Shown here: positions 3,371 to 34,100 of the stretch, piece by piece
Layout: every line of letters starts with the position of its first letter
Numbering within the stretch: the stretch's first letter is position 1
Assembly: GCA_943356675.1 (NCBI GenBank)
Contig: CALRFQ010000003.1
Location: forward strand, 1-56,494
DNA from: Candidatus Nomurabacteria bacterium
GTDB taxonomy: Bacteria > Patescibacteriota > Minisyncoccia > Phycocordibacterales > UBA9973
DNA length: 56,494 nucleotides
Direction: 5' to 3'
The notes under the pieces: generated by a model
What the model was told of the DNA's origin: nothing
The model's database searches: none
Seen by the model: only the letters and a program-made list of their open reading frames with translations
Translations under genes and position numbers: made by a program

Positions 3371-5540
3371 GCTTGAGTCACAATTTAGAATAAATGAAAT
3401 ACAAAGGAATGCACTTTCGCATATCGGTGTTTTTACTGTGCGTGACCTCTTGTATTACTTCCCCGCACGTTATGGCGACATGTCAGAAATTCGTAGTATA
3501 AATACGCTCAAAGATGGAGAAGATGTAACAATCCTTGGAGTGCTTACCGATCTTAAAACTAAAAAAAGTTTCAAGAGTAAGATCCCAATGGGTGAAGCGA
3601 AAATTACAGACCTATCCGGAAGCATTCATATCGTGTGGTTCCATCAGCCTTACCTTGCAAAGATGATGAAGGAAGGAAGCACAGTAAGAGTCACAGGAAA
3701 AGTGAAAGAAAATAGCACCTATGGCCTCACTCTCACAAACCCAGAAATGACACCTGAGGACGTGCTACCTATAGATCTCCACGATTCACTTTTCTCTGGC
3801 AATGAAAAGATCTCTCAGTATGGCTACCCTATTTATCGAGAAACAAAAGGTATAACATCCAAATGGATTTACCATACAATTAAAAAGATTCTTATAGATA
3901 GTGAAATCAAAAATACTTTAGAATACATTCCGAGTGAAATATTAGAAAAATATAAATTACCCTCTCTTCTCACCGCTCTCATCTGGATTCATATGCCAGA
4001 GAAAAAGGAGCACGCAGAGATTGCTCGCAAGCGCTTCGCTTTCGAAGAAGTATTCTTCATACAGCTTGCACGCTGGCAAGAAAGGAAAGCCTATGAATCA
4101 CTCTTTTCTTACCGGCTCACAGTGCCAGAGAAGGACGTGGCAGATTTTATTTCCCGTTTCCCTTTTACACCTACAAAATCACAAACAAATACAATTGAAA
4201 CAATTCTTAAAGACGTGGAAATGGATAAGCCAATGTCGCGACTTGTGGAGGGAGATGTGGGTAGCGGAAAAACTTTCATCGCTGCTACTGTTTCTTATGC
4301 AGTTATAAAGAACAGGCCCTTTGATAAAAAGTTAAATAAAATTCAAACCTTTGGATCACTCCAAGTGGCGTATATGGCGCCGACAGAAGTGCTTGCCACG
4401 CAACTGTTTGAAAACTTCATCACATACTTCAAACACACAGGAATATCCATCGGGCTTATGACTGGCTCTGGATGCAGGAAGTTCCCAAGCAAAGTTGCAA
4501 GTAGCACTGAGGACTGGACCAACATTTCTAAATCTCAATTACTAAAATGGGTTAAGGGTGGAGAAATTCCTATCCTTATCGGTACGCACGCACTCATCTC
4601 CAAGTCCGTCGATTTCAAAGATTTAGGATTAGTCATCATCGATGAACAGCACCGCTTCGGTACAAATCAGAGAATGAAACTCGCGAAGAAGGATGGCCAT
4701 GCTCCGCACTACCTCTCAATGACGGCTACCCCTATTCCTCGTACGCTTGCTCTCACTATCTATGGTGACCTCGATTTATCCATAATTGATGAAATGCCAG
4801 CCGGTAGAAAGAAAGTAATCACAAATATAATTCCTGAGAATAAAAGACAGGTTGCTTATGATGAAATAAAGAAAGAGCTCGAGAATGGCCGCCAGCTTTA
4901 TGTGATTTGCCCACGCATCGATGAACCAGATCCTGATCAAGAGAAAGCAATCCTTGCGAAGTCTGTACTTTCTGAAGCAAAAAGATTACAGAAAGATATT
5001 TTCCCGAAATACAGAATCGGTGTAATGCATAGCAAAATGACGAAACAAAAAAAGGAAGAAGTGATGGAAGAATTTGTGAATCATGAAATAGATATTCTTG
5101 TCTCCACCTCTGTAATTGAAGTGGGTGTCTCTGTCGCAAATGCCACAATGATAATCATCGAGGGAGCTGAACGCTTCGGTCTTGCTCAGCTTCACCAGCT
5201 TCGCGGGCGCGTGATCCGCTCAAATCACCAATCATATTGCTACCTTTTCGCTGATGCCAAAAGTGAGAAGACTATTGAAAGATTGAAGGCTCTTACTAAA
5301 GCTGCAAATGGATTCGAACTTGCCGAGCTCGACCTCGCACAGCGTGGTGCCGGGCTCCTAGGTGGAGACAAACAGTGGGGCGTGACGGACCTAGGCATGG
5401 AAGCCATCAAGAACATAAAACTCGTGGAAGCCGCTCGCACAGAAGCTCACACACTTGTGGATGAAGACACTACCCTTTCCAAATACCCACTCCTATCTCA
5501 AACCCTCGCTTCCAAAAATTTCACTCTCCACTTCGAATAA
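3354..5540 (+). CDS. recG: ATP-dependent DNA helicase RecG
   Basis: Wedge/OB domain, GDVGSGKT, APTEVLA, DEQHRFG, TATPIPR, QLHQLRGRV, TRG motif. Confidence 0.96.
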   Translation: MKLDDKLESQFRINEIQRNALSHIGVFTVRDLLYYFPARYGDMSEIRSINTLKDGEDVTILGVLTDLKTKKSFKSKIPMGEAKITDLSGSIHIVWFHQPYLAKMMKEGSTVRVTGKVKENSTYGLTLTNPEMTPEDVLPIDLHDSLFSGNEKISQYGYPIYRETKGITSKWIYHTIKKILIDSEIKNTLEYIPSEILEKYKLPSLLTALIWIHMPEKKEHAEIARKRFAFEEVFFIQLARWQERKAYESLFSYRLTVPEKDVADFISRFPFTPTKSQTNTIETILKDVEMDKPMSRLVEGDVGSGKTFIAATVSYAVIKNRPFDKKLNKIQTFGSLQVAYMAPTEVLATQLFENFITYFKHTGISIGLMTGSGCRKFPSKVASSTEDWTNISKSQLLKWVKGGEIPILIGTHALISKSVDFKDLGLVIIDEQHRFGTNQRMKLAKKDGHAPHYLSMTATPIPRTLALTIYGDLDLSIIDEMPAGRKKVITNIIPENKRQVAYDEIKKELENGRQLYVICPRIDEPDPDQEKAILAKSVLSEAKRLQKDIFPKYRIGVMHSKMTKQKKEEVMEEFVNHEIDILVSTSVIEVGVSVANATMIIIEGAERFGLAQLHQLRGRVIRSNHQSYCYLFADAKSEKTIERLKALTKAANGFELAELDLAQRGAGLLGGDKQWGVTDLGMEAIKNIKLVEAARTEAHTLVDEDTTLSKYPLLSQTLASKNFTLHFE

Positions 5541-5657
5541 ACTTATCGAAGGCGTAACTTTTCTGGAGGCTTACGGAGGCGGACGCGCCGAGTACGAGAC
5601 GCTTTTTCAGTAGAAAAAGACGGCGTACTCCAAGTAAAGTTATGCCGAGATAAGTTT
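5539..5657 (+). repeat. Structured element family A, copy 1 (at the recG stop)
   Basis: Terminal stem AAACTTATC/GATAAGTTT plus GGCGTAACTTT/AAAGTTATGCC; GGCG-GACG-CGCC; CG-CTTTTTC-AGTA-GAAAAAG-A-CG. Confidence 0.85.
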
Positions 5658-5694
5658 CAATAATTATTTGACGACTATGTTATAATATAAATAT

Positions 5695-6429
5695 ATGAAT
5701 ATATTACTTGTTTTAGCTATATGCGTCTTTACTGCCACATTACTCGGAGGGCTTTTTGCTTTAAAGTTTAAAGATAAACTACACTTAATACTCGGCTTTT
5801 CAGCTGGAGCAGTTATTGGTGTCGCTTTTTTTGATTTACTACCTGAAGCACTTGAGCTTGGTAGCGTATCATATGAATCCTCTACTATCACATCGATAGT
5901 TGCACTTGGATTTATTCTTTTTATGATTCTAGACCGCTTCGTTATTATGCACAGCCATTCGCACGATGATGAGCATGAACACCATAAACATTCACCTAGA
6001 GGAATTCTCGGAGCAAGTTCCCTTTCTATACACAGTTTCCTAGACGGTGCAGCTATTGGGCTCGCATTTCAGATATCTGCTGCAGTCGGAGCTATCGTAG
6101 CAGCGGCAGTGCTCGTGCACGACTTCTCAGACGGAATAAACACAGTGAATTTAATTATGAAAAATGGTGGCGAGAAAAAAGAAGCCTTTCGTTGGCTCCT
6201 TGTGGATGCTATTGCACCAGTCCTCGGAATATTCTCGACACTATTCTTTACTGTATCTGAAGGCACCCTCGGTGTAATCCTCGCGATCTTCACTGGGTTC
6301 TTCATTTACATCGGAGCAAGTGACCTTCTACCAGAGAGCCACCACTCGCACCCTACAATGTGGACCAGCTTCGCTACAATCCTCGGCATAGCAGTACTAT
6401 ACGGAGCAATTAAAATTGCAGGAATGTAA
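5695..6429 (+). CDS. ZIP family zinc/metal transporter
   Basis: Multi-TM, His-rich loop HSHSHDDEHEHHKH, HSFLDG and HDFSDG motifs. Confidence 0.92.
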   Translation: MNILLVLAICVFTATLLGGLFALKFKDKLHLILGFSAGAVIGVAFFDLLPEALELGSVSYESSTITSIVALGFILFMILDRFVIMHSHSHDDEHEHHKHSPRGILGASSLSIHSFLDGAAIGLAFQISAAVGAIVAAAVLVHDFSDGINTVNLIMKNGGEKKEAFRWLLVDAIAPVLGIFSTLFFTVSEGTLGVILAIFTGFFIYIGASDLLPESHHSHPTMWTSFATILGIAVLYGAIKIAGM

Positions 6430-6431
6430 TT

Positions 6432-7301: not shown

Positions 7302-7305
7302 CTAG

Positions 7306-7379
7306 TCCGTCCTCATGGATTCGAACCATGGACCCCAGAGGTATAAGCTCTGTGCTCTAACCAACTGAGCTAAGGACGG
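7306..7379 (-). tRNA. tRNA-Ile with anticodon TAT (UAU)
   Basis: Reverse complement CCGTCCT...GCTC-AGTTGGTTA-GAGC, CAGAG-CT-TAT-AC-CTCTG, CATGG-TTCGAAT-CCATG, AGGACGG-A. Confidence 0.92.
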
Positions 7380-9411: not shown

Positions 9412-9855
9412 ATGACGACATACGTGCAAAATAGAAAGGCACACTTTAATTTCAGTATAGAAGACACCATCGAAACTGGCATAGAACTATACGGATTTGA
9501 GGTGAAAGCTATAAAGGCAGGCAAGGGCAACCTCGCAGGCGCTTTCGGCATTGTGCGTGGTGGCGAGATATATATAGTGAATATGAATATCCCCCCTTAC
9601 CAGACAGAGAACACGCCCAAGGATTATGACCCAGATAGACCGAGGAAACTCCTACTAAATAAGAAGGAAATAGCTGAACTTGCGGACCTCGATAAAAGAG
9701 GTGGTTTGACATTAATCCCTACTTCATTGTATAGTAAGGGTCGTCGGATCAAGGTTGCACTCGCTGTCGCAAAAGGTAAAAAGCTTTTCGACAAGCGTGA
9801 GAGCATTAAGAAGCGCGACACTGATAGAGATATCAGGAGAACATTGAAAGAATAA
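9412..9855 (+). CDS. smpB: SsrA-binding protein
   Basis: NRKA, ETGIELxGxEVK, RKLLL, AKGKK, DKRE; directly upstream of tmRNA. Confidence 0.97.
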   Translation: MTTYVQNRKAHFNFSIEDTIETGIELYGFEVKAIKAGKGNLAGAFGIVRGGEIYIVNMNIPPYQTENTPKDYDPDRPRKLLLNKKEIAELADLDKRGGLTLIPTSLYSKGRRIKVALAVAKGKKLFDKRESIKKRDTDRDIRRTLKE

Positions 9856-9860: not shown

Positions 9861-10244
9861 GGGAGTGACGGGCTTCGATGGGAGCTGTCATTTTATATGT
9901 GCGTGTCGAGTCCTCAGAAATCTCGCTAAACTTTCTGAAAAAGACTAAGTGCAAACTCTGTCGCTTCAGTGAAGTCACCATATTTTGCTGGCTTCGCTCC
10001 TGCATTCGCCTAAATTTAGGTCAATCAGGTGTCTAGTATTATCGACATCCGATAAATAGTACAGGCATAATCAATCGGGTTACGAACTTTATACCGCTTG
10101 AATAAAGTTCCGACAATTAAGAGCTAGGTGATATTGTGTTTTGTATGTTCTCTAGCAATATCATTTAAATCCAACGAACATTCTACACACGTAGATTCAT
10201 ATAGAAGCATCTTTCACATGGCGGTTCAACTCCGCCCACTTCCA
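9861..10244 (+). ncRNA. ssrA: tmRNA; tag ORF 9951-10013 ANSVASVKSPYFAGFAPAFA*
   Basis: GGGAGTG/CACTTCC-A acceptor stem with G3.U70, T arm GGCGG-TTCAACT-CCGCC, resume context TAAGT-GCA, Ala-rich tag, next to smpB. Confidence 0.95.
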
Positions 10245-10251
10245 CTAGTAT

Positions 10252-10286: not shown

Positions 10287-11651
10287 TTATTTTACTAATT
10301 TATTTGCAATACCTATATAATTCTCTGGAGTAAACTTTTTGAGTTCAGTTTTAATTGCGGGTGTTACTTTGAGTCCATCGATAAATCTCGCGAAGTCTGC
10401 CATAGTCACCTTCTTCCCACGAGTGAGATCCTTCAGAGCTTCATATGGCACAGGATATTTCTCTCGCCTTAGGACTGTCTGGATAGCTTCTGCCACAACC
10501 TCTGGGTGATTCTCTAAATCCTCTAGTATTTTAATTTTATTCACACTTATCTTACTGAGTCCTTTACTAAGCATTACATATGCAAGTAGTGAGTGGCCGA
10601 ATGCTGTGCCGAATGCACGCTCCACTGTGGAGTCTGAAAGGTCGCGCTGAAGGCGTGAGACTGGGAGCTTTCGAGCGAAGAATTCAAACATAGAATTTGC
10701 GAGGCCGATATTGCCTTCACTGTTTTCAAAATCAATCGGATTAATCTTGTGCGGCATTGTGGATGAGCCTACCTCCCCTGCTTTTGGCTTTTGAGAAATG
10801 TAACCATCAGAAATGTATCTCCACATATCCTGATCGAAATCAAGAAGGACCATATTTGCTCGGCGAATAATATCAAAAAGTTCTATATATGTATCATGTG
10901 ATTCAATCTGTGTAGTAATCAAATTTGCTTCGAGCTTCACTCCTGCAATTTTACTGAGGTGCGCCACAAACTTCTCTGTGAACTTCGGCCAGTTGGCTTT
11001 CGGGTACGCTGCCACGAATGCATTATAGTTACCTGTCGCACCATTTAACTTCATCATCACTTTCTGATTCTTAAGCTGTTTGATCTGGCGACTTAGGCGA
11101 TATGCAAATACAGCCATCTCCTTCCCTAGTGTAGTAGGTGAAGCGCTCTGGCCGTGTGTGCGAGAAAGCATAGGGAGAGATTTATTCTCTCTTGCGAACT
11201 TCTCGATATTTTTAGAAATGTTTTCCAATTCTGGAAGTAATACATTTTTCACCGCAAGCGAAAGCATGAGAGCGTATGAAGAATTATTTGTATCTTCAGA
11301 AGTGAGACCAAAGTGCACCCACTCAAGAGTATCCTTCAAACTAGTTTTTTCTAAATTTTCTTTTATGAAATACTCCATAGCCTTCACATCATGGTTTGTA
11401 GTCGCCTCGAATTTCTTGATCTTCGCATATGATGCATCACTAAAATTCTCATAGAGTGAGCGGATAGCTTTCACTTCGTTTTGAGTTAAATTCCTAAGGC
11501 TAGTAATCTTAGACTCTGATAGGAAAATAAGGAATTCGCACTCAACCATCGTGCGGTACTGCATAAGAGCATACTCGCTCATATACGGCGCAAGCGCCTT
11601 CGTCCTCTCTTCATATCTTCCATCTAGTGGGTTTATAGCTTTACTGTTCAT
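10287..11651 (-). CDS. purB: Adenylosuccinate lyase
   Basis: NPLDGRY, TNHDVKA, HFGLTSED, RTHGQ, GSSTMPHKINPIDFEN, RDLSDS. Confidence 0.96.
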   Translation of the reverse strand: MNSKAINPLDGRYEERTKALAPYMSEYALMQYRTMVECEFLIFLSESKITSLRNLTQNEVKAIRSLYENFSDASYAKIKKFEATTNHDVKAMEYFIKENLEKTSLKDTLEWVHFGLTSEDTNNSSYALMLSLAVKNVLLPELENISKNIEKFARENKSLPMLSRTHGQSASPTTLGKEMAVFAYRLSRQIKQLKNQKVMMKLNGATGNYNAFVAAYPKANWPKFTEKFVAHLSKIAGVKLEANLITTQIESHDTYIELFDIIRRANMVLLDFDQDMWRYISDGYISQKPKAGEVGSSTMPHKINPIDFENSEGNIGLANSMFEFFARKLPVSRLQRDLSDSTVERAFGTAFGHSLLAYVMLSKGLSKISVNKIKILEDLENHPEVVAEAIQTVLRREKYPVPYEALKDLTRGKKVTMADFARFIDGLKVTPAIKTELKKFTPENYIGIANKLVK

Positions 11652-11652
11652 A

Positions 11653-12609
11653 TTATTTCTTTAAATTATTTTCGATTCGTTCTACGATTCCTTGAGAGAA
11701 ATCATGATCAAAAGCTTTACCAGTAATAGTTTCATAAATCTCTATATAACGGCGAGATAGTTCGGCTACGAGTTCTGGAGGAGCTTCTGGCAAAACTTTA
11801 TCATTGTATGGATCACAATTTTCTTTGAACCAAAGTCGTAGAAATTCCTTGTCGAAATATTCTGGCTCAAGATCTTGGTCGAAACGCTCTTGGTATGTGT
11901 TTGCCTTCCAGTAGCGAGAAGAGTCTGGAGTGTGTATTTCATCGATAAGAGTTAATTTTCCATTTTCGTCTAGTCCAAATTCATACTTAGTATCGACAAG
12001 AATCAAACCTTTCGTGTATGCAATTTCCTGACCACGCTTAAATAATTCTATCGCTACCTTCTCCACTTCTTCAATCAATTCTTTTTTCATAAGACCTTCT
12101 GCCACAATTTCTTGCGGAGATAAAGTACGGTCATGTTCTTCAAACTTCGTCGATGGAGTAAATACTGGTTCTGGCAATTGCTGATTCTTGTGCATTCCTT
12201 CAGGTAGAACGAAGTTTCCGAAATCTCTTTTACCATCCTTGTAGTGTGTCCAAAGTGATGTGGAAGTTACACCAGTAATGTATCCACGCACAATTGCCTC
12301 AATAGGAAGAGGCTTGCAAACCTTCGCCACTAGAACAGCTGGGTCTGGAATACTTACTACGTGATTCTGTATGATGTCCTTTGTATTTTCAAACCAAAAA
12401 GCACTAATGAGATTCAAAACTTCACCCTTGAAAGGCACAAAGGCAATAATACGATCAAATGAAGAATGCCTGTCTGTGGAAACTAAAGTAATTTTATCTG
12501 GTGATACATATATATCTCGGACCTTCCCTACTTTCTTTTCACCCAAACCTTTCAAGTTTGTCTCCTTCAGCACGTCGCCAATATGTTCTTTGATTAAATC
12601 AATATTCAT
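11653..12609 (-). CDS. purC: SAICAR synthetase (long type)
   Basis: GKVRDIY, TDRHSSFD, EAIVRGY, FTPSTK, LVDTKYEFG, DEIHTPDSSR, DKEFLR. Confidence 0.95.
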   Translation of the reverse strand: MNIDLIKEHIGDVLKETNLKGLGEKKVGKVRDIYVSPDKITLVSTDRHSSFDRIIAFVPFKGEVLNLISAFWFENTKDIIQNHVVSIPDPAVLVAKVCKPLPIEAIVRGYITGVTSTSLWTHYKDGKRDFGNFVLPEGMHKNQQLPEPVFTPSTKFEEHDRTLSPQEIVAEGLMKKELIEEVEKVAIELFKRGQEIAYTKGLILVDTKYEFGLDENGKLTLIDEIHTPDSSRYWKANTYQERFDQDLEPEYFDKEFLRLWFKENCDPYNDKVLPEAPPELVAELSRRYIEIYETITGKAFDHDFSQGIVERIENNLKK

Positions 12610-12728
12610 CCCGTTAGAGATAGGAAATCTTTAGATTTCCGTACCTTATTATTATTGTTAATATATCTTCTATAATACCATTTTTAAACTTCTCACGTAA
12701 GACATAACTAAAAATCTCTAACGGGAGA
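12610..12728. mobile_element. Element family B, copy 1: inverted-repeat-bounded insertion at the purC start codon
   Basis: CCCGTTAGAGAT (12610-12621) / ATCTCTAACGGG (12714-12725); CAT on both sides (12607-9, 12729-31); near-identical ends at 26634-26755. Confidence 0.75.
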
Positions 12729-12732
12729 CATA

Positions 12733-13773
12733 TTATTTTAAAATTACTTTTTTATTACCATTAATAATTTGACCAATTTCATAAATACTAAAATTTGGAT
12801 AATCTTTTAGTATAGTTTCGATTTTTTCTTTTTCACTCTTCGGCACGATAAGTATAAGTCCAATTCCCATATTGAAGACTCTATACATTTGCTCTGTAGG
12901 CACATCCCCCACTTTTTGCATATAAGGAAAGATCGGAAGCATTGGCCAAGTATTTAAATTTATTTCAGCATCGAGATCTTTCGGAAGCACACGTGGAATA
13001 TTCTCTATAAATCCTCCGCCAGTAATATGCGCAATTCCGCGGATATCAATTCCTTTTGAAAGCATATCAAGGACCGGCACAGAATAATTCACATGTACTT
13101 TAAGTAGAGCTTCCCCTACTGTCATTCCTAGCTCAGGTACATTTGTATTCACATCGAGCTTGCCTATATCAAAAAGTATTTTACGAGCAAGCGAGAATCC
13201 ATTTGTATGTAATCCTGAAGATGGAAAGCCGAGGAGAATATCTCCTTCTTCGATTTTCTCTCCTGTAATAATTCCAGATTTTTCTACTACTCCTGTAATT
13301 ACTCCAGCAATATCATGCTCACCTTGTGCATATACTCCTGGCATTTCTGCAGTTTCTCCACCGATGAGTGACACACCGTTTTCTTTACAAGCTTTCGCCA
13401 TACCGCCCACCATTTGAGCCATTACTATAGGGTCGAGCTTATCGTGCGCTACGTAGTCGAGAAATGTGAGAGACTTGGCTCCCATAGCAAGGAGGTCATC
13501 ACAGCAGTGATTCACAATGTCTTGCCCTACTGTGTCGTACTTATTCATCATTCTTGCTACAGAGAGCTTCGTGCCCACACCATCGATACTCTGCACGAGC
13601 ACAGGGTTCTTATAGTTTTTAATTATTTCAGATAAATCATAAAGCCCACCGAAAGAGCCAATGCCGGTAAGCACAGCTTTCGTATGAGTCCCTGCCACAT
13701 CACCTTTCATAAGGCGCACCGCCTCATTCCCCGCATCAATGTTTACTCCTGACTCACTGTATAGATCACTCAT
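12733..13773 (-). CDS. purM: AIR synthetase
   Basis: YSESGVNID, GSFGG, DGVGTK, GGETAEMPG, SSGLHTNGFS, HITGGG, FNMGIG. Confidence 0.96.
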   Translation of the reverse strand: MSDLYSESGVNIDAGNEAVRLMKGDVAGTHTKAVLTGIGSFGGLYDLSEIIKNYKNPVLVQSIDGVGTKLSVARMMNKYDTVGQDIVNHCCDDLLAMGAKSLTFLDYVAHDKLDPIVMAQMVGGMAKACKENGVSLIGGETAEMPGVYAQGEHDIAGVITGVVEKSGIITGEKIEEGDILLGFPSSGLHTNGFSLARKILFDIGKLDVNTNVPELGMTVGEALLKVHVNYSVPVLDMLSKGIDIRGIAHITGGGFIENIPRVLPKDLDAEINLNTWPMLPIFPYMQKVGDVPTEQMYRVFNMGIGLILIVPKSEKEKIETILKDYPNFSIYEIGQIINGNKKVILK

Positions 13774-13777
13774 AATA

Positions 13778-14299
13778 TTATTTCGCTAGATAATTTTTAT
13801 AACCGATTTCTTCCAATTTCTTTCCTTTAGCTTCCACTTCCGAACTCATTTTATTTTTGTAGGCTATAAATTTTTCATTCAAATCACTGTCAGATAGTGC
13901 GAGGATTTGTATAGCGAGTATTCCAGCATTCTTAGCAGCATTTATGCCCACTGTAGCGACTGGCACTCCGGGTGGCATACCCACAGTAGAGAGAAGTGAA
14001 TCAAGTCCGTCGAGAGTCTTCGCTTTCACTGGCACACCGATAACAGGAAGTGTCGTGAGTGAAGCACACACACCAGCAAGGTGTGCTGCACCGCCAGCAG
14101 CTGCAATAATTACCTTTATACCGCGGTCTACTGCTCCTGTAGCATATGCGTGAACCACACTTGGCGCACGATGAGCTGAGGCGACTGTCATTTCAAAAGC
14201 TACTCCAAACTCCTCAAACACCTTAGCTGAATCAGACATTACCTCCAAATCTGAGTCCGAACCCATAACAATACTAACTAATGGTTTATTTGTATTCAT
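13778..14299 (-). CDS. purE: N5-CAIR mutase / AIR carboxylase
   Basis: MGSDSD, SAHR, AGGAAHLAG, PVIGVP, MPPGVPVATV. Confidence 0.96.
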   Translation of the reverse strand: MNTNKPLVSIVMGSDSDLEVMSDSAKVFEEFGVAFEMTVASAHRAPSVVHAYATGAVDRGIKVIIAAAGGAAHLAGVCASLTTLPVIGVPVKAKTLDGLDSLLSTVGMPPGVPVATVGINAAKNAGILAIQILALSDSDLNEKFIAYKNKMSSEVEAKGKKLEEIGYKNYLAK

Positions 14300-14330
14300 A
14301 CGGTGATTTTATCATATAGGGACAAAAAAG

Positions 14331-14357
14331 AAAAAGAGCCGTATCAGGTGCTCTTTA
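14331..14357 (-). terminator. Probable terminator after purD
   Basis: AAAGAGC/GCTCTTT stem with a T-run on the - strand. Confidence 0.55.
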
Positions 14358-14407
14358 GCTATTGTATGACCAAAAAACATTGGTTATCTTAATCGTACCA
14401 TTCCATA

Positions 14408-15703
14408 TTATTTAAGCAAGGAAAGTGCCTTTTTACCTATGTCTTTTCTGTACTGCATTCCTTCAAATGAAATTTTTGCCACAGCTTTGTAGGCTTTCGC
14501 AAGCGCTTCTTCAAGAGTCTCACCGATAGCTGATACTCCGAGGACTCTCCCGCCGTTTGTAATAAGCTCACCGTTTTCATTCAACTTCGTGCCGGCGTGG
14601 AAAACCACGATATCATTATCCTGCTCGGCATCACCTATACCACTTATCACTTTCCCCTTCTCGTAATCTCCAGGATATCCACCAGAGGCCAAAATTATCG
14701 TGCAAGCAAAACCTTCATTCCAATCCACCTTATACATACTCAATTCTTTATTTACAATTGCATTAAAAATTTCTAGCAAATCAGTTTTGAGGAGCCTCAT
14801 ATAAGTCTGAGTTTCTGGGTCACCGAAGCGTGCATTGTATTCTAAAATCTTCGGACCATCTTTCGTAAGCATGAGCCCTGGATACAGCACACCTTCGAAA
14901 GGCACACCATCGTGCTCCATACCTACAAGAGTAGAAAGGATTATAGTATTTTTTATTTGCATAAATGTTCCTTCGTCCACAAATGGAAGCGGTGCAATAG
15001 TGCCCATGCCACCAGTGTTGAGACCAGTGTCCCCCTCACCAATTCTTTTATGATCTTGAGAAGGTGGAAAAGCTTGAGAAGATACTCCATCTGAAAATGC
15101 GTGAGTTGAAATTTCAGGACCCTCCATAAATTCTTCTATCACCACTTCCTCTCCTGCATTACCAAACTTTTTATTTACTAGCATATCTTCCAGCGCAGTT
15201 TTCGCCTCATCTAGTGTCTCGGCAATTATCACACCCTTACCAAGTGCAAGACCAGAAGCCTTCACCACTATCGGTAGAGACATGCTTTCCATATATTTAA
15301 TTCCATCTTCAAAATCTGTGACCACTTTGAATTTCGCAGTTGGGAGATTGTGCTCTTCCATGAACTTCTTCGAGTAGGCTTTGGACCATTCGAGCTTCGC
15401 TGCATCTTTCGTTGGACCCCATATTCGGAAGTCGGACTTCCGAAATTCATCAACGATGCCAAGTGCAAGTGGATCATCGGGAATTGCGAGAGTGAGATCT
15501 ATTTTTTCTTTCTTTACGAATTCAAGTAGGCCACTTATATCAGTCGCTTTGATATTCACATTCGTGCCGATATTGGCAGTGCCAGCATTCCCCGGCGCGA
15601 AGTAAAGCACAGGATTATGCTCGGACTGTTTTAACTTCCAGCCGATAGAATGCTCCCTTCCCCCACTACCAATTATTAAAACTTTCTGATTATTTAATTG
15701 CAT
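14408..15703 (-). CDS. purD: GAR synthetase
   Basis: GSGGREH, APGNAG, LEWSK, VVKASGLALGKGV, QDHKR, NTGGMG, EYNARFGDPE, NGGRVL. Confidence 0.97.
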   Translation of the reverse strand: MQLNNQKVLIIGSGGREHSIGWKLKQSEHNPVLYFAPGNAGTANIGTNVNIKATDISGLLEFVKKEKIDLTLAIPDDPLALGIVDEFRKSDFRIWGPTKDAAKLEWSKAYSKKFMEEHNLPTAKFKVVTDFEDGIKYMESMSLPIVVKASGLALGKGVIIAETLDEAKTALEDMLVNKKFGNAGEEVVIEEFMEGPEISTHAFSDGVSSQAFPPSQDHKRIGEGDTGLNTGGMGTIAPLPFVDEGTFMQIKNTIILSTLVGMEHDGVPFEGVLYPGLMLTKDGPKILEYNARFGDPETQTYMRLLKTDLLEIFNAIVNKELSMYKVDWNEGFACTIILASGGYPGDYEKGKVISGIGDAEQDNDIVVFHAGTKLNENGELITNGGRVLGVSAIGETLEEALAKAYKAVAKISFEGMQYRKDIGKKALSLLK

Positions 15704-16308
15704 AATTCTTCCAAGACTTTTATGTATAATCTATTTTCCATTTGTTTCAATCGCACATATAAAGATTCCACATTATCACCTTCCTCAATCTTTTCAAACA
15801 CTCTGCCGAGCACTGGACCGAAGTCGAAATTGAGAGTTAGAAAATGTATTGAAGACCCAGCATAAGTACTTTTTTGATTTATAAAATTTTGTATCGCTTT
15901 ATCAGTGAGCATGCCTTTATTCCAAAGTGCCTCTGTACCATCAGGATTCTCTACTACCCCATCCACAGAATCTGGTATGAGTCCTGGGTGCAAATTTAAA
16001 ATCTTATTTGGATATGCCAATATAACCTCATCTAGAATGATTTGCTTCCAGCCTGCAAGAGCAATAAAATCTGGATTTATTTCCTGCAACTTTTGAAGAA
16101 GTAATTCCTTTTTTTCACAAATTTCAATTTTTACATTATGAGCTTTTGCATGGCTCAGTGCTTGTGCTTGATCAGTATCTGAAATCACAGCACAAACTTC
16201 TGAACTAATTAATCCAGTAGCGACCGCTTCCAGTATCGCTTTCAAATTTGTACCAGTACCAGTATTTGAAACTAATATAACTAATTTTTTTTTATTGTTT
16301 TGGGACAT
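15694..16308 (-). CDS. purN: GAR transformylase (formyl-THF dependent), divergent
   Basis: GTGTNLKAI, LAGW, NLHP (catalytic N, H), DFGPV; operon position. Confidence 0.88.
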   Translation of the reverse strand: MSQNNKKKLVILVSNTGTGTNLKAILEAVATGLISSEVCAVISDTDQAQALSHAKAHNVKIEICEKKELLLQKLQEINPDFIALAGWKQIILDEVILAYPNKILNLHPGLIPDSVDGVVENPDGTEALWNKGMLTDKAIQNFINQKSTYAGSSIHFLTLNFDFGPVLGRVFEKIEEGDNVESLYVRLKQMENRLYIKVLEELCN

Positions 16309-17728
16309 CGTAAGTTACTTCATTTTTTCTTTCTAATATATCTATCGGGTACTCTCCAGTGAAACCAGAAAGTGAAAGTGAAGAACGTGGAATGCCGGTA
16401 GCTTCCACCATGCCGTCTACAGATAGATATGACACTGAAGTTGCCCCCACATATTCACAGATTTCTTTTGTAGTTTTCTGTGAGGCTATAAGGTCTGCTT
16501 GCTTGGGAGTGTTTATACCATAAAAGTCTGGAAACATTACCTTCGGTGATGAAGACATTAGGTGCACTTCTGTCGCTCCCGCATCGAAGAACATTTTTAC
16601 AATCTGTCGGCTAGTATTACCACGAACGATGGAATCATCCACCACTATCACACGCTTGCCTCTTAGGGTCTCTACAAGGGGAAGGAATTTCATTTTAAGT
16701 TTCTGCTCGATGTCCGCCTGAGTGGGCTCGATGAATGTACGGTTTATATAGCGATTCTTTGAGAGCGCCATTTCAAATGGAATGCCAGATGCTTGTGAGT
16801 AGCCGAGAGCTGCGGGCACAGCAGTCTCTGGCACTGGCACTACAATGTCGGCCTCAATCTTAAATTCTTTCGCTAGCATCTTGCCGAAGTTCTTGCGCAC
16901 TTCATATACGGACTTACCCAAAAGGTCGCTATCGTGGCGAGCAAAGTAAACGAATTCAAAAATATCAAACTTAGGATTAGCAGGTGCAAGTGTGACTGAG
17001 GCAATTCCCTTTTCATTCACTATAACCATCTCTCCTGGGAGCACTTCTCTCTCAAACTCTGCACCGACTACGATGAGTGCACAAGTCTCTGATGCGAAAA
17101 CGATTTCATCTCCATTTATATTCTTTCTCTTTCCCATTACAAGCGGGCGAATTCCGCAAGGATCACGGAATGCTACGAGGCTAGTGCCGGAGAGCGCCAC
17201 ACAAGAAAATGCTCCAGTCCAGAGCGGATATGCACTCTTAATAGCTTCCACGATATCCTTACCTTCTTTCATAAATACATCAATAGAGTTTGCCATCATT
17301 TCAGAATCAGAAAAGTTTTCTATCTTCACTCCTTTACTATTTAGAAATTCTTCAAGCTTCTTTGTACTAGGAAGATTTCCATTATGAGCGAATGCTACAT
17401 TTGGCAAATTTGAAATTCCAGATGGTGTTGTCGCAATGCCGCACACCACAGGCTGAGCATGATCCTCACCACCTCCACGGCTAGTAGCATAACGATTGTG
17501 GCCTATTGCCATAGTCCCTTTCAAGCTCTGGATAGCATCCTCCGTATACACCTGGCTCACAAGCCCTGTGCCTTTATAGGAAATCATTTGCTCACCATCA
17601 CTCGATACTATTCCAGATTGCTCTTGACCACGGTGCTGAAGTGAGAACAAGCCGAAGTACGTCTGCCTCGCAGCATCCCCGCTTCCCCATATTCCAAACA
17701 CCGCACACTTTTCTTCTAATTTTTCCAT
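16292..17728 (-). CDS. purF: Amidophosphoribosyltransferase
   Basis: EEKC (Ntn Cys), LQHRGQE, GHNRYAT, AHNG, RDPCGIRPL, VDDSIVRGNT. Confidence 0.96.
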   Translation of the reverse strand: MEKLEEKCAVFGIWGSGDAARQTYFGLFSLQHRGQEQSGIVSSDGEQMISYKGTGLVSQVYTEDAIQSLKGTMAIGHNRYATSRGGGEDHAQPVVCGIATTPSGISNLPNVAFAHNGNLPSTKKLEEFLNSKGVKIENFSDSEMMANSIDVFMKEGKDIVEAIKSAYPLWTGAFSCVALSGTSLVAFRDPCGIRPLVMGKRKNINGDEIVFASETCALIVVGAEFEREVLPGEMVIVNEKGIASVTLAPANPKFDIFEFVYFARHDSDLLGKSVYEVRKNFGKMLAKEFKIEADIVVPVPETAVPAALGYSQASGIPFEMALSKNRYINRTFIEPTQADIEQKLKMKFLPLVETLRGKRVIVVDDSIVRGNTSRQIVKMFFDAGATEVHLMSSSPKVMFPDFYGINTPKQADLIASQKTTKEICEYVGATSVSYLSVDGMVEATGIPRSSLSLSGFTGEYPIDILERKNEVTYDVPKQ

Positions 17729-17734
17729 AATATT

Positions 17735-17860
17735 AAATGATTTGTAATAAAATAAATCTTGCGAATACCCTCTTCGCAGGCTGACGAGCCGAGAAAAGCA
17801 ATTTTTCAGTAGAAAAATATGCGTGGGTTGAGCAAGGTTGTATTTTATGTAAAATCATTT
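17735..17860 (+). repeat. Structured element family A, copy 2 (purQ stop / purF start)
   Basis: AAATGATTT/AAATCATTT, TAAAATA/TATTTTA and AATCTTGC/GCAAGGTT stems; GGCT-GACG-AGCC; GCA-ATTTTTC-AGTA-GAAAAAT-A-TGC. Confidence 0.85.
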
Positions 17861-18634: not shown

Positions 18635-18635
18635 A

Positions 18636-21664: not shown

Positions 21665-23077
21665 ATGATACAACCAGAACTTAAGGTTACAGGATATAGA
21701 GGGGTTTGGGGTGAGAGCCTAAATGAAGATATTTCTATAAGCTTCGGAGCTGCCTTTGCCTCATTTACAAAAGTAGACTCGGGTAAAGAAAATCCCACAA
21801 TTCTCATAGGGCGTGACGGACGCGAAAGTGGAGAGTCTATCGCAAATGCAATTATCCCAGAAATAGAAAAGCTCGGTGTAAATGTAATTTACGGCGATGT
21901 ACTCCCTACCCCTACCATAATGCTTTCTGTAAAAGAGAAAGGTTACGATGGAGCGATAATCATTACCGCTAGCCACAACCCCATAAAATACAATGGTCTC
22001 AAATTCGTCACGAAAGGTGCACGAATGACAAATGAAAGTGAAGTAGAAAAAATAAAAAGTTTTCTAACTAGCGAGCGAGAAAATGTTGTTCCAGGAACCC
22101 TTTCGCAGCGCGACGGCGCGAGAAGAGAAATTTTCCAGCAGGAAAATATTCGTGGTGACGGGAATAACATTTCGAGCGAGCTGATTAACATACATATTAA
22201 TAAAATCCTAGAAAATATTGATGTAGAAAAAATCCGTGCACGGAAATTCAAAATAGCTGTAGATATGATAAATGCATCGGCATGTGTGATAGACCCATAT
22301 TTATTTGAAAAGCTTGGCGTGGAGTATGTAGCGTTGAATGACACACCAAACGGAAAGTTTGCACACGAACCAGAACCAATAGAGCAAAACCTGAAAGATA
22401 TTTGCGCCTTAATGAAAGAAAATAAGTGTGACGTGGGCTTCGCTCACGATCCTGATGCAGACCGCCTCGTAATCATAGACGAGAATGGTGACTACATTTC
22501 TGAAGAATACACTCTCGGCTTCGGTATTGAAAATGTCATGTCAAAGAATCCAAATAGAAATGTAGTGGTGAATATGTCCACTTCGCAAATGTCTGCAGAT
22601 ATTACTGAGAAGTACGGAGGTACTTGCTACCGTACCAAAGTAGGAGAAGCGAATGTTTTCGCTGGTATCGATGAACACGATGCAATCATAGGTGGTGAAG
22701 GAGGCAGCGGATGCATATACCCTACTATAAACAATTGCCGTGACGGATTCGTAAGTATGACTCTCGCACTTGAACTCTTAGCTACGAGAAATTCTACAGT
22801 GAGCGAAATGGTAAATATATTGCCAAAATACTTTATGAAAAAGGATAAGTGGTCTGTGGAAGGAAAAAACACTCTAGAACTATATGAAAAGCTAAAAACT
22901 CATTTCCCAAATGCAAAATATAATATGCTCGATGGCATCCGCCTCGATTTTCCAGACCAATCTTGGATACACATGCGCCCATCAAATACTGAACCAATCA
23001 TCCGAATGTTCGGTGAAGCAAAAACTTCTGAACGCTTAGAAGAACTTTACGCAGAAGCTAAAAAAATAATCTCCTAA
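21665..23077 (+). CDS. Alpha-D-phosphohexomutase (PGM/PMM family) carrying an in-frame repeat insert
   Basis: TASHNP (phospho-Ser), DPDADR (metal), GGEGSG, RPSNTEP. Confidence 0.93.
   Translation: MIQPELKVTGYRGVWGESLNEDISISFGAAFASFTKVDSGKENPTILIGRDGRESGESIANAIIPEIEKLGVNVIYGDVLPTPTIMLSVKEKGYDGAIIITASHNPIKYNGLKFVTKGARMTNESEVEKIKSFLTSERENVVPGTLSQRDGARREIFQQENIRGDGNNISSELINIHINKILENIDVEKIRARKFKIAVDMINASACVIDPYLFEKLGVEYVALNDTPNGKFAHEPEPIEQNLKDICALMKENKCDVGFAHDPDADRLVIIDENGDYISEEYTLGFGIENVMSKNPNRNVVVNMSTSQMSADITEKYGGTCYRTKVGEANVFAGIDEHDAIIGGEGGSGCIYPTINNCRDGFVSMTLALELLATRNSTVSEMVNILPKYFMKKDKWSVEGKNTLELYEKLKTHFPNAKYNMLDGIRLDFPDQSWIHMRPSNTEPIIRMFGEAKTSERLEELYAEAKKIIS
22066..22186 (+). repeat. Structured element family A, copy 3 (in frame inside pgm)
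   Basis: 74-bp core 22090-22163 is 71/74 identical to 23548-23621; GCGC-GACG-GCGC; GAA-ATTTTCC-AGCA-GGAAAAT-A-TTC. Confidence 0.92.
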
Positions 23078-23916
23078 ATTTTAAAGTCTCCGATTTTTGT
23101 TCGCTTGATATGGAGAGCGAGGGCAGGCACTCCTAGAAGGTTGCCTAAGTCATTTGCTATGCTTCTTACATAAGTGCCACTGCCACAATTTATCGTGAGG
23201 GTAACTACTTGAAAGTCTTCCTCCCTAGGTCCAACCTCGGGAGATAAAACCTCTTCCCATTTCGCGAGAATTTCTTCTTGGCGGAAATCGCCTTGCACGG
23301 AACCTATAGAACTTTTAATATACTTATGTAATTTTTCTTTCGTGATTGTTTCCACTTTCTTTATTTCAATACTTTCCACATGCACCTTGTGCTTTGGGAT
23401 TTCTATATCACTTAGTCTTCCCTCTCTAGCCCACTGAAAAAGTGGTTTGCTATTCACAGTGCGAGAAGAATACGGCGGATACGCTTGCTCAAAGTCACCA
23501 GTAAATTTATTTTGTAGAATTTCAGAGAGCGAATGAAGGCACATTGATCCAGGAACCCTTTCGCAGAGCGTCGGCTCGAGAAGAGAAATTTTCCAGCAGG
23601 AAAATATTCGTGGTGACGGGAGTAATGTGTCGAGTGAGCTCTCTTGATTTACCAACCCCATCACATCATATGTATCAGTAGCGAAACCAAAGAGAACTTT
23701 CACTTCGTATTCTTTAGGTAGCATCGTGTATTCATCCTTTTTCATACATTCATCACCGGCAAGAATAAGCAAAAGCCCTTCGGCGAGCGGATCAAGGCGC
23801 CCAGCATATGTAAGGGGTAAAAATTGGTATTCTGACTGCTCCTCCCTCAGCCTACTTAGGGCAGAAAGCGGGGTTTCTCCCATGTTTTTGTAAAAAGGTA
23901 TAATTTGTAGGGGCAT
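23074..23916 (-). CDS. truB: tRNA pseudouridine(55) synthase carrying an in-frame repeat insert
   Basis: YAGRLDPLAEG, KEY, TDTYD, PPYSS, CGSGTYVRS, RTKIG. Confidence 0.92.
   Translation of the reverse strand: MPLQIIPFYKNMGETPLSALSRLREEQSEYQFLPLTYAGRLDPLAEGLLLILAGDECMKKDEYTMLPKEYEVKVLFGFATDTYDVMGLVNQESSLDTLLPSPRIFSCWKISLLEPTLCERVPGSMCLHSLSEILQNKFTGDFEQAYPPYSSRTVNSKPLFQWAREGRLSDIEIPKHKVHVESIEIKKVETITKEKLHKYIKSSIGSVQGDFRQEEILAKWEEVLSPEVGPREEDFQVVTLTINCGSGTYVRSIANDLGNLLGVPALALHIKRTKIGDFKI
23524..23644 (+). repeat. Structured element family A, copy 4 (in frame, antisense, inside truB)
   Basis: AGAGAGC/GCTCTCT terminal stem; GAGC-GTCG-GCTC; same AGCA hairpin as copy 3. Confidence 0.92.
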
Positions 23917-27689: not shown

Positions 27690-27694
27690 ATATA

Positions 27695-29395: not shown

Positions 29396-29397
29396 CG

Positions 29398-30572: not shown

Positions 30573-30641
30573 AAATTTCTTAAGTGAATTAATAAATAAT
30601 ACTGTAAATATAGCAATAAAAAGCTAAAATAGCAATTTAGA

Positions 30642-31190: not shown

Positions 31191-31191
31191 A

Positions 31192-33915
31192 TTAACTAGT
31201 GTATTTTGCCATTATTTCTGCCTCGATTTCATCACGATCACGGCCGTACTTGAGGTATGAAAGCTCTTTTAAGCTATCTACTATCTGCGTATTTCCGGCA
31301 GGTGGTGCAAATGTAGATATGTTGAATGGCTTCGTCGGCTGACCGCCTATGAGCATACTAATGTAGGCATTTCTATTATCTATCTTCATTATGTCTTTCG
31401 CTGTGAATACTGGTTTAAATTTACTCTCGAGGAATTCTGCATCTTCAGCCCCAACACGGAAGACTGCCAATGAACCCACGTTTCCAAAAACTGCATTTTT
31501 GATTTTATCTTCAAGTTGAGAAATATACTGGTGAGCTACAGTAAGAGAAAGGCGGTACTTGCGAGCTTCAGAAAGAATTGATTCAATAGAGTCTGTTGTA
31601 ATATTTTGAAACTCATCTATATACAGGAAGAAGTCTTCCATTTTTTGACCATACATATCCACACGAGAAAGTGCTGCCATCTGAATCTTACCCACAAGAA
31701 GCAAACCAATTAAATTCGCATTTATATCTCCCAATCGTCCTTTTGATAAATTAACAAGAAGAATTTTTTTATTGTCCATGATGTCACGGAAATTAAATAC
31801 AGACTTTTCTTGAAGGACCACTGGGCGCATAATGTCGTTTGAAATAAAGTTGTCGAACTTTGATGAAATGTATGGCACGAAGTTTGCTAGTGATTGATCC
31901 CCAGTCGTCTGCTCTGCTCCTACCCAAAACTGTTTAATAATTGGATTTTTACATTTAGCAAGTTTCATATCTCGGAAAGCTTTGTCGCCCAAGACTCGAG
32001 TGATTTCAAGCAGAGTACAACCAGATTCCGGATCCTCCATCACAAGGAAAGCACTGTTTCGGAAATATTGCTCAAACATAGCTCCTCCACCAGTTTTCAT
32101 ATCAAAAAGCTTGTTGAAAATATTCATTAATTCATTCACTACGAATGTCTTTTGTTCAGGATACTTCGGGTCAAACTCAAGCATGTTGAGACCCATAGGA
32201 CGTGGAGTATAAGCTGGGTCAAAGTAGATCACATCATCTATGCGCTCTTTCGGCACATAAGAAAGAATGTCTTGAATATCAGTCCCGTGTGGGTCTATAT
32301 AGCACACGCCGTGCCCGGCTGCGATATCCTGCGCGATCATATTTTTCATTATTGTAGTCTTACCTGTACCAGTCTGACCGATCACATAGAAGTGACGCAT
32401 ACGATCCTCAGGAGCAAAGAGAATGTCTGTCTCCCGGCCACGATAACTATTGTGACCAATTTTAATGCCCTCATTCCCCATTTCCATTGGAGCAGGTGCA
32501 ATACCAGCCTTTGCTTGCTTGAGCTGTGGAGAATCTTCAATACCATATGGGAAGTGAAAAATAGTTGCAAGCTCTTTTAAATTTAGAGGCATTTTCAAAG
32601 TATCACTGAATGTACGATAAGAATAGTCGTGAAGTAATTCACGGAGCTCTGGACCTTTCGGATGATGAAAATCAAAACCGTTTCGATCCGCTTCCGTGAA
32701 CTGGTTGAATGATGACTCAATATCATTAAGAATTTGCTTTGCTCTGTCTTCTGTCTCAGCTGATGCAACCACACGAATATTTGTGGCCATTATAGTGCTC
32801 TTTAATTTCTCTGTGATAGCTTCCACAGCTCTGTCATTCACCTTCTTCTCCTCTTTTTGCTTACTGGCTCCAAAGATTAATTCTTTTGCCATTTTTCCAA
32901 ATTCTTTTCCAATCTGGCGGCCCACAGATGAAGCAGTGCGCACAGACATTCCCTCTTTCACATCATTTAGGACTATGCGAAATTCTTTTACAATATCATC
33001 ATCCTCAGGACAAATCGAGAACTGAATAGAGGCACCTTCACCTTCTTTTTTTAATTTAGAAAAGACATTGAGAATAATGTTTAGTGGATCATGCTCGATG
33101 GTATCGTACATCTTTATCGGATACACATCATGGTGCGCGAGTGAAGCATAGCTCGCTGCTGTGTGCCCACCGTCGGTAAATACATTATAATCATCTGGCA
33201 CTTCATTTATCTTTGCATGAGCGTGCACACCAAGGATCTGCTTCTCAAAAAGGTCAGCTTTATTGGAAGGCACTGCAGTGTAGAATATAAAATGATCACT
33301 ATTATTAGAAATCGCAACCTCTAGAGTGAAGTGACTTCGATTATAATTCTGGCGATTCTCTCCCACTGAATGCATACCCGCATAAAACTGCTCCATTGTA
33401 GATAGTAATTCTTTAAGACCCTTTTTATCATCGTCCGTTGGTTCTGGAAGAGTAATCTCGAAAAGCTTCATGTCGAGCGACTTCCAAAGTGGCGTGCCCT
33501 CCTTAAGCCCTGGCACAGTGTGCGTGGAGACTAGGTACTGCACGAGGAAACGATGGAAGTCATCGTCTAAGTGAGGATTCTCCATCTTCGCAATTACAGA
33601 AAGCGCAGTGGACACTCCTTTCTCAAGAAGCACCCCTAGTAACTCTTCCATCTTTGCATCATGATTCTCGGGCTTCAAATGTAGCACTAGCTGCTGCACT
33701 TCTTTCTCAGGCATAGCCACCGATGGATGCATTACTTCAGTATGAGGAGTTTGGCGATAAGTACTAAGTGCTTCGTGTGCGAGCTGCTCTTTCGTAACTT
33801 CAGTGCCTTGGTGCGCCATCGCTTGCTCACGCTCTGCAATATGCGCACGCAAAAATTGCAGCTCTTCTTCAGGAGTTTTAAATTTCGGAATATTATTCAA
33901 AGAAAAATTTTCCAT
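31192..33915 (-). CDS. VirD4/TraM-like (HerA/DUF87) P-loop ATPase, 907 aa
   Basis: RMRHFYVIGQTGTGKT, YIDPHG, YIDEF, SEARKY, AHQYISQL, NVGS. Confidence 0.85.
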   Translation of the reverse strand: MENFSLNNIPKFKTPEEELQFLRAHIAEREQAMAHQGTEVTKEQLAHEALSTYRQTPHTEVMHPSVAMPEKEVQQLVLHLKPENHDAKMEELLGVLLEKGVSTALSVIAKMENPHLDDDFHRFLVQYLVSTHTVPGLKEGTPLWKSLDMKLFEITLPEPTDDDKKGLKELLSTMEQFYAGMHSVGENRQNYNRSHFTLEVAISNNSDHFIFYTAVPSNKADLFEKQILGVHAHAKINEVPDDYNVFTDGGHTAASYASLAHHDVYPIKMYDTIEHDPLNIILNVFSKLKKEGEGASIQFSICPEDDDIVKEFRIVLNDVKEGMSVRTASSVGRQIGKEFGKMAKELIFGASKQKEEKKVNDRAVEAITEKLKSTIMATNIRVVASAETEDRAKQILNDIESSFNQFTEADRNGFDFHHPKGPELRELLHDYSYRTFSDTLKMPLNLKELATIFHFPYGIEDSPQLKQAKAGIAPAPMEMGNEGIKIGHNSYRGRETDILFAPEDRMRHFYVIGQTGTGKTTIMKNMIAQDIAAGHGVCYIDPHGTDIQDILSYVPKERIDDVIYFDPAYTPRPMGLNMLEFDPKYPEQKTFVVNELMNIFNKLFDMKTGGGAMFEQYFRNSAFLVMEDPESGCTLLEITRVLGDKAFRDMKLAKCKNPIIKQFWVGAEQTTGDQSLANFVPYISSKFDNFISNDIMRPVVLQEKSVFNFRDIMDNKKILLVNLSKGRLGDINANLIGLLLVGKIQMAALSRVDMYGQKMEDFFLYIDEFQNITTDSIESILSEARKYRLSLTVAHQYISQLEDKIKNAVFGNVGSLAVFRVGAEDAEFLESKFKPVFTAKDIMKIDNRNAYISMLIGGQPTKPFNISTFAPPAGNTQIVDSLKELSYLKYGRDRDEIEAEIMAKYTS

Positions 33916-33940
33916 GTTTTTATTATATCACAATCTAATA

Positions 33941-34100
33941 AGCGATAGTACAAAAACATATAGGAAAAGCCTTGCGCAGGAGCTTAGAAAATAAATGAGG
34001 CTATGTTAATTGCCGATTATTATTTTCTTGAGTGACGAGCAGAGCAAAAATCCAGCAGGATTTTATGTGTGCTTTTATCATATGTTTTTGTACTAAAGCT
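33941..34100 (+). repeat. Structured element family A, copy 5 (expanded, at the map stop)
   Basis: Perfect 16-bp IR 33946-33961/34080-34095; GCA-AAAATCC-AGCA-GGATTTT-A-TGT; TGACGAGC. Confidence 0.75.

Follow-up and report, generated by a model that had tools for sequence, protein, structure and literature searches.

What is a branched, multi-hairpin DNA element doing in five places of a small and densely coded bacterial genome, twice in the middle of a housekeeping gene? The stretch in which the question arises is a 56.5 kb contig of Candidatus Nomurabacteria (CALRFQ010000003.1, positions 1 to 56,494; hereafter the window, meaning the whole stretch analysed). An initial annotation, made from the letters of this stretch alone, had grouped the five copies into one family and proposed a non-autonomous mobile or protein-bound element. 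The analysis described here supports this proposal by covariation of the stems, presence and absence of copies between relatives, the occurrence of the subfamily of the first copy (c1) at different loci and the lack of any Rfam match. The reading that we favour, with moderate confidence, is that of a small, non-autonomous, selfish, structure-defined mobile palindromic element of Paceibacteria (Parcubacteria), which probably moves as a folded single strand. The assignment to Paceibacteria rests on the names of homologous proteins: the closest relatives of the window proteins are proteins from metagenome-assembled genomes named Nomurabacteria, Paceibacterota or Patescibacteria. The same contig was found again in several ENA assemblies. 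The genomes of Paceibacteria are tiny and packed with genes, and dispersed repeats are not known to be a feature of them.

Five copies with one fold

Both strands of the window were scanned for CAGYAG loops on stems of 6 bp or more. The + strand returned exactly five element copies (approximately one copy per 11 kb), which are the five that had been annotated, and the - strand gave none. Their positions, RNA folding z-scores and, for four of them, scores against the covariance model described below are:

Copy c1, 5539..5657, + strand: intergenic; z-score -7.2; 67.5 bits.
Copy c2, 17735..17860, + strand: in the gap between purF and purQ; z-score -6.6; 85.8 bits.
Copy c3, 22066..22186, + strand: in frame and sense within a glmM-like open reading frame (ORF); z-score -4.7; 102.8 bits.
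Copy c4, 23524..23644, + strand: in frame and antisense within the truB ORF; z-score -4.8; 98.3 bits.
Copy c5, 33940..34101, + strand: in the gap between a DUF8128/TraG-like gene and a peptidase M24 gene; z-score -2.5.

The top strand of every copy folds into the same shape, a three-way junction of three stems (P1, P2 and P3) with an overall length of about 105-165 nt. P1 is the long terminal stem, free in sequence and often broken by tandem G.A loops; P2 is a short, expandable hairpin of 4 bp with a GACG loop; P3 is a hairpin of 10 bp with a single bulged A and an AGCA/AGUA loop. The strands that join them read UUGCGCA (J1/2), GAGCAnAG (J2/3) and GU (J3/1). The layout first described for the copies is all there. 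It comprises the YTNCGSAG motif, a hairpin of 4 bp with a GACG/GTCG loop, the GAG linker and a hairpin of 7 bp that has an AGYA loop and a bulged A and is extended by two to three further pairs. One detail has to be corrected. P2 of c5, which had been called degenerate, is instead enlarged by an extra hairpin of about 45 nt (window 33984-34033), and the P2-P3 part of this copy (34030-34070) was recovered at E=0.0035 by a model built without c5. Long insertions in the P2 loop were also seen in two metagenome copies (L079:1402-1560 and L103:6134-6251), and from these three cases it follows that P2 is an expandable arm or a site of nested insertion.

The copies lie tightly against, or inside, genes. 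The start of c1 falls within the TAA stop codon of recG (ORF 3354-5540, +), with a ZIP transporter gene (5695-6429, +) downstream; c2 is antisense to both purF (16292-17728, -) and purQ (17855-18634, -), and a new purQ stop codon sits within its 3' arm; c3 encodes approximately amino acids (aa) 135-175 of the mutase, with P2 at 22108-22119 and P3 at 22127-22151; c5 is flanked by the DUF8128/TraG-like gene (31192-33915, -) and the peptidase M24 gene (34100-34867, -), and its 3' end overlaps TTA, which is the M24 stop codon in reverse complement.

The family outside the window

Metagenome contigs were scanned with a single pattern in which the loop and junction bases were fixed and the stems left free (19 exact bases plus one Y, that is, 20 specified positions). 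The scan returned at least 120 metagenome loci, and all locus counts given here refer to the matches listed. A covariance-model search for further copies had been suggested in the initial annotation; a model built from six cores identified 124 copies in 100 of the 120 listed loci, nearly all of them above 55 bits. Among the 118 distinct sequences, standard pairs occupied 95.3% of the pair cells, compared with 64.6% in shuffled controls and 34-51% when the pairing partners were slid. Double-sided changes were present in all 25 pairs, the covariation score was 0.756 versus 0.207, and none of 500 shuffles attained any of the observed pairing or covariation measures. The sequence of the stems thus varies while their pairing is kept, as had been claimed from the five copies.

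The unpaired core is also conserved. Among positions that the pattern left free, the UUGC of J1/2 (U23 U24 G25 C26 in alignment A6) and the AG before P3 (A147 G148 in the same alignment; the A unpaired, the G being the first base of the P3 stem) were near-invariant. The bulged A was present in 115 of 117 copies, a frequency given by construction, the base being fixed by the pattern.

The arms of P1 were assessed by duplex energies; delimitation of the ends by minimum free energy over-extends into the flanks. Within the 30 nt that flank the model on either side, the arms of one copy paired with each other at a median of -14.3 kcal/mol, against -6.9 kcal/mol with the arm of another copy (p=8e-40), and between copies the arm sequences were 27-30% identical, which is the random level. 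This agrees with the earlier description of a long terminal stem that differs in every copy yet always pairs. The GA-rich internal loops noted in it proved real, the symmetric GA/GA loop being the most frequent internal loop of the arms, mostly 6-12 nt outside the model.

The element is abundant in groundwater and sediment metagenomes, and a scan of viral contigs gave no match. A strict, P3-centred pattern run over the GTDB species genomes gave 16 matches, equal to the chance expectation and none with a P3 stem; this pattern is too strict even for the close relatives and uninformative on distribution.

One folded strand

Since G-U and U-G pairs together outnumber A-C and C-A pairs in the modelled stems by 115 to 36, one strand of the element is the folded strand. 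With RNA parameters 111 of 126 copies, and with DNA parameters 115 of 126, folded more stably on the top strand than on the bottom strand, and the tandem G.A loops would become pyrimidine mismatches on the opposite strand. The top strand lay on the strand of negative GC skew at 63 of 96 loci (p=0.003), and so did that of all five copies of the window. It is known that hairpins are readily deleted from the lagging-strand template, and the 2:1 bias would fit a preferential loss of the better-folding strand from that template.

A folded strand with a preference for G-U pairs might be an RNA. The three-way junction, the invariant unpaired core, the free stems, the high copy number and the abundance in metagenomes are shared with hammerhead and twister ribozymes, and would suit a selfish RNA element, either a small self-cleaving or self-ligating ribozyme or an RNA recognised by a reverse transcriptase (RT), that spreads through an RNA intermediate. 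We consider this improbable. An Rfam 15 cmscan of the whole window gave only a transfer-messenger RNA (tmRNA) and two tRNAs at the gathering score, and no family, whether ribozyme (hammerhead, twister, pistol, hatchet) or other (5S, SRP, 6S, Y RNA among them), overlapped any copy at E values up to 10, in line with the first impression that the element belongs to no named family. No RT gene recurs near the copies, and by our own comparison the junction does not fit the hammerhead core. Sense copies in essential mRNAs (glmM, recG, uvrD, fmt, tsaD) would undergo cleavage, and the insertion described below is precise, with neither tail nor duplication. Resemblances to hammerhead, 5S, SRP and Y RNA and to attC sites were considered as well; none was supported by the Rfam scan, the ends or the consensus.

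Copies between genes and within genes

Gene calls in the metagenome loci were simple ORF calls. The counts varied with the gene caller: long ORFs spanned a quarter to a third of the copies, and 7-13 of the copies in coding sequence were antisense. In-frame copies were found, in both orientations, in at least 12 housekeeping protein families. The Pfam-confirmed hosts are RecG, UvrD, Fmt, a class-V aminotransferase (IscS-like), TsaD, KsgA, HrcA, an MPG glycosylase, a SpoU methylase and a TP_methylase protein; GlmM and TruB are further host families, and the TsaD gene carries two copies. In UvrD, seemingly decayed stretches of similar length, as judged by eye, stand where a homologue has a copy.

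With the element written as E and its neighbours as arrows, the intergenic copies fall into the classes <E< (26), >E< (18), >E> (13) and <E> (12), with no preference for the sense strand of the neighbours, and many of them adjoin stop codons. This lack of a sense preference speaks against both a cis-acting mRNA element and a terminator. The latter had already been rejected in the initial annotation, and rightly so: >E> is the smaller class relative to <E< (13 versus 26), copies also occur within coding sequence and the fold is branched.

These positions bear on whether the element could serve its host as a structured non-coding or cis-acting RNA (a protein-binding site, an mRNA 3'-end stabiliser or a processing signal). 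Such a role would suit the very strong covariation, the conserved unpaired nucleotides of junction and loops, the favoured G-U pairs, the many intergenic copies abutting stop codons and the way in which the element has persisted, across deep lineages, in the same loops of glmM and truB. Against it, the largest intergenic class is antisense to both neighbours, antisense copies also occur in coding sequence, the flanks and arms share no sequence, so that a conserved flanking promoter is impossible, and copies are gained and lost between close relatives, to which the seemingly decayed UvrD stretches and the lack of an Rfam match can be added. We therefore regard a beneficial host RNA as unlikely, if still the foremost of the alternatives to a selfish mobile element.

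No gene travels with the copies. Among 990 ORFs clustered from around the copies at the 120 listed loci there was no recurrent neighbour (the largest cluster comprised 12 ORFs in 9 of the 120 loci), and the genes of the window include no transposase or nuclease gene, both of which agree with the non-autonomy initially proposed. Some copies stand side by side in opposite orientation (L042:5285-5489, L045:3598-3861, L033:1779-2014 and L079:1402-1771), recalling pairs of repetitive extragenic palindromic sequences (REPs) of the kind found in bacterial interspersed mosaic elements (BIMEs).

Translations of the element were sought in protein databases. A profile of the 44-aa element peptide matched only five tiny ORFs in a word-indexed protein database; a full HMMER search of 1.84 billion representative proteins gave 67 matches, mostly ORFs of 30-140 aa. 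Because this protein set is clustered at 50% identity, host proteins with the insert are probably hidden in it. The dozens of 'proteins' of 30-140 aa (among P0121-P0187) that match the profile are likely spurious ORF calls across intergenic copies. P0126, a protein of 3014 aa with 15 matches to part of the profile, is probably a repeat protein that has no relation to the element.

Gain, loss and precise insertion

Three close relatives of the window were recovered, with GlmM proteins 87-90% identical to that of the window. The search for empty sites, also suggested at the outset, produced one: the purF-purQ site is filled in the window and empty in the relative L025. The insertion of c2 comprises the whole unit of about 125 nt, including both arms, and lies between TTA and TTT without target duplication. 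A copy of the c1 type with similar arms is present at L025:534-615, between purE and purK, the window copy c1 being located between recG and the ZIP transporter gene. In truB, the element is present in the window and in L025, and the truB of L027 (L027:3683-4399) retains only a 3' half in the orientation opposite to c4, which suggests an inversion followed by partial deletion in place. These comparisons show copies to have been gained and lost between close relatives, and the whole unit with its arms to have appeared at new loci without target-site duplication. Copies with crisp ends had no shared sequence in their termini or flanks and no flanking repeat.

The idea that the arms stem from the target, through inverted duplication of flanking sequence, was considered and rejected: the empty site lacks both arms, and c1 and the L025:534 copy share arms at different loci. 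A stretch of L027 (13541-13647) is 100% identical to window 33891-33997, including the 5' part of c5, while the GlmM proteins of the two contigs are just 87% identical; this points to recent recombination between strains.

Copies in glmM and truB and exchange between copies

Two genes of the window carry a copy in frame:

21665..23077, + strand: glmM-like phosphoglucosamine/phosphomanno-mutase, intact on both sides of c3 (match to 1wqa, E=9.6e-71).
23074..23916, - strand: tRNA pseudouridine synthase TruB, with an intact sequence to either side of c4.

The mutase was modelled with AlphaFold2 (mean predicted local distance difference test score, pLDDT, 84.8); the sole segment below 50 is aa 139-167, the loop encoded by the element, and residues 94-137 of TruB are without counterpart in the solved TruB structures. 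In most of 120 GlmM homologues (54-100% identity), the same loop contains peptides derived from the element, read in several frames and from both orientations, and about 15 have a short, empty loop. In the DNA of these homologues, the element is sense in glmM of L020, L022, L023, L025, L027, L030 and L066 and antisense in L061; at the TruB site it is antisense in the window and sense in L065. An intron or a translational bypass was considered and dismissed: the ORFs run open through the element in both orientations and several frames, in more than 100 GlmM homologues, and the element is therefore translated, neither spliced nor bypassed. In five GlmM homologues from other Paceibacteria (P0007, P0028, P0039, P0070 and P0119), the same loop is occupied by another peptide family, PLLVEEGAGGGD...LALKGTPPQRGGE, perhaps from a second family of palindromic elements, unrelated to the first, that uses this permissive site too. 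Small stand-alone ORFs of GIY-YIG nucleases (79-82 aa) were seen in two related genomes, no more than a few kb from glmM (L020:6722-6970 and L022:8151-8390).

Across J2/3 and P3, c3 is identical to the paralogous c4 at 34 of 34 positions and to the orthologous glmM copy of L025 at 25 of 34, and its 3' arm is the orthologous one. In the glmM copy of L027, P2 and J2/3 equal those of the L025 copy and P3 equals that of c5. Gene conversion thus transfers entire hairpin modules from one copy to another within a genome, and many of the 'compensatory' changes are for this reason single transfer events. Gene conversion could also explain the intactness of old copies, and the flips of orientation at one site may have arisen by recombination between the inverted arms.

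Such transfers open the question of whether pairing could be kept in the absence of selection, through template switching in quasi-palindromes (whose correction is an established process) together with the transfer of modules, both of which restore complementarity. The swapping of whole hairpins (the P3 of the L027 glmM copy being that of c5) and the many double-sided changes that are single events are in its favour. Correction, however, would perfect the palindrome, yet the bulged A (a base fixed by the pattern), the junction, the G.A loops and a 3:1 excess of G-U over A-C pairs are kept, and the conservation of unpaired sequence would be left without explanation. We give this possibility very little weight.

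Comparison with known families

A literature search for palindromic repeats or miniature transposable elements with inverted repeats (MITEs) of this kind in Patescibacteria or other bacteria of the Candidate Phyla Radiation (CPR) found none, and returned only papers on MITEs and on Rickettsia palindromic elements (RPEs). In behaviour, the RPEs are similar. They are, like the element, palindromic repeats about 100-150 bp long that encode nothing themselves and have no known enzyme to move them, and the placement of copies between genes and in frame in at least 12 families (Pfam-confirmed), with the host proteins intact, is RPE-like. This likeness is one of behaviour. The element differs from RPEs in its hosts (Patescibacteria), its termini without consensus, its conserved internal three-way junction with invariant unpaired nucleotides and its single folded strand.

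Bacterial MITEs (Correia/NEMIS, ERIC, BOX, RUP and the Coxiella MITEs) are also small, non-autonomous, dispersed, hairpin-forming and occasionally in frame within genes, but they are defined by conserved terminal inverted repeats (TIRs), bound by a cognate transposase, and by target-site duplications. In the element, the arms pair within a copy and have no terminal consensus between copies, and no target-site duplication was found at purF-purQ, the sole filled/empty pair, or in the flanks of the crisp copies.

Elements derived from IS200/IS605, which move as single-stranded DNA (ssDNA) by 'peel-and-paste', share with the element the absence of target duplication, precise borders and an orientation bias related to replication, and probably also single-strand specificity and recognition of hairpins. 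Their ends, in contrast, consist of two subterminal hairpins with conserved cleavage tetranucleotides and do not pair with each other, whereas the 5' and 3' ends of the element do, and the bias of the element toward the low-skew strand is the opposite of that predicted for IS608-type insertion. No conserved target or cleavage tetranucleotide flanks the copies, and no Y1 transposase (TnpA) was found near them (flanks of up to 10 kb). Integron attC sites are likewise defined by structure over sequence, act as a folded single strand with extrahelical bases, have a variable distal part and depend on replication orientation for their stability. They differ in that R/L boxes (GTTRRRY) are conserved at their base and the tip varies, in lying in arrays beside intI and in flanking cassettes; in the element the base is variable and the tip conserved. 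The R''/R' boxes (RYYYAAC/GTTRRRY) were looked for: the base of P1 is without consensus, the copies are dispersed and lie in genes, and no integrase recurs nearby.

REPs and BIMEs, with their RAYT transposases, are also abundant extragenic palindromes, sometimes in inverted pairs and mostly with no linked gene. They are simple hairpins of 20-40 nt with a GTAG or CGTC tag, compared with a branched element of about 105-165 nt that occurs in coding sequence as well, and the element consensus has no 5' GTAG or CGTC tag. The comparison bears on one further alternative, a site that serves the host at the level of DNA, as a cruciform or other structured binding site for a nucleoid, topoisomerase or replication protein, spread and homogenised by recombination and not by transposition. 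Dispersal without a linked gene, adjacent inverted pairs, the GC-skew orientation bias and gene conversion are compatible with it; insertion into essential coding sequences and presence or absence in close relatives suit a parasite better, and the features that define REPs are absent. We judge it about as improbable as a selfish RNA, and note that a host site in DNA and a selfish element cannot be told apart by sequence alone.

A model of mobility

The favoured reading, a selfish element that moves as a folded single strand, can be set out as follows. The element would be recognised by its folded core, because its ends have no consensus and are defined just by hairpin closure, and because selection acts on one strand. 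The enzyme would be structure-specific, act in trans from a gene elsewhere in the genome, and cut and rejoin the element, in single-stranded form (ssDNA, 'peel-and-paste'-like), at the base of P1. We infer movement as a single strand from ends that are set by the closure of P1, a conserved junction, selection on one strand and precise insertion. Gene conversion from intact copies would keep old copies, such as the one in glmM, fresh-looking, and recombination between the inverted arms would flip the core in place. Copies do survive between genes and, provided that they are in frame and without stop codons, in surface loops of essential proteins, in either orientation.

Several observations weigh against this reading. 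The sample represents one subfamily, and conservation at the positions specified by the pattern is by construction. A single clean filled/empty pair was resolved at nucleotide level. The single-strand mechanism is inferred from the features just named, and no candidate enzyme was found near the copies. Such strong conservation of junction nucleotides is more usual in ribozymes or in RNAs that bind proteins than in MITEs, and the orientation bias is 2:1, with GC skew a proxy for replication direction. The element is, moreover, kept in the glmM and truB loops across lineages at 55-65% protein identity, a persistence that is unusual for junk and requires frequent gene conversion, re-insertion or a host function. 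There is a real chance that the mechanism of movement is new. That the element is the substrate of a structure-specific single-strand mobility system of CPR bacteria, or that its core is a new small catalytic or protein-binding nucleic acid, is a possibility that we put forward only tentatively.

Other features of the window

Three further observations concern the genes of the window. A tRNA-Ile gene with the anticodon TAT (UAU) is located at 7305-7379 (-); tRNA-Ile with a UAU anticodon is uncommon in bacteria, the usual type being the lysidine-modified CAU. The smpB gene (9412-9855) directly precedes the tmRNA gene (9861-10247, 114.8 bits), with the tag peptide ANSVASVKSPYFAGFAPAFA. A near-complete cluster for de novo purine synthesis (purB, purC, purM, purE, purD, purN, purF, purQ and purL) extends over 10287-21617; as far as we know, CPR bacteria are generally described as being without nucleotide synthesis, which makes the cluster notable.

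Significance

The element affects how these genomes are annotated: dozens of tiny database 'proteins' look like translations of it, and it inflates the 'hypervariable loops' of CPR proteins. In evolutionary terms, it indicates that gene conversion and rearrangement in place are frequent in reduced genomes, it supplies new peptide loops, and its insertions hit essential genes (glmM, truB, recG, uvrD, fmt and tsaD). In terms of mechanism, a near-invariant junction combined with ends that lack sequence identity does not fit the logic of transposase and TIR, and points to an enzyme that reads structure. If true, a structure-specific mobility or a new nucleic acid would constitute a new class of mobile element or RNA, abundant in a major uncultivated lineage.

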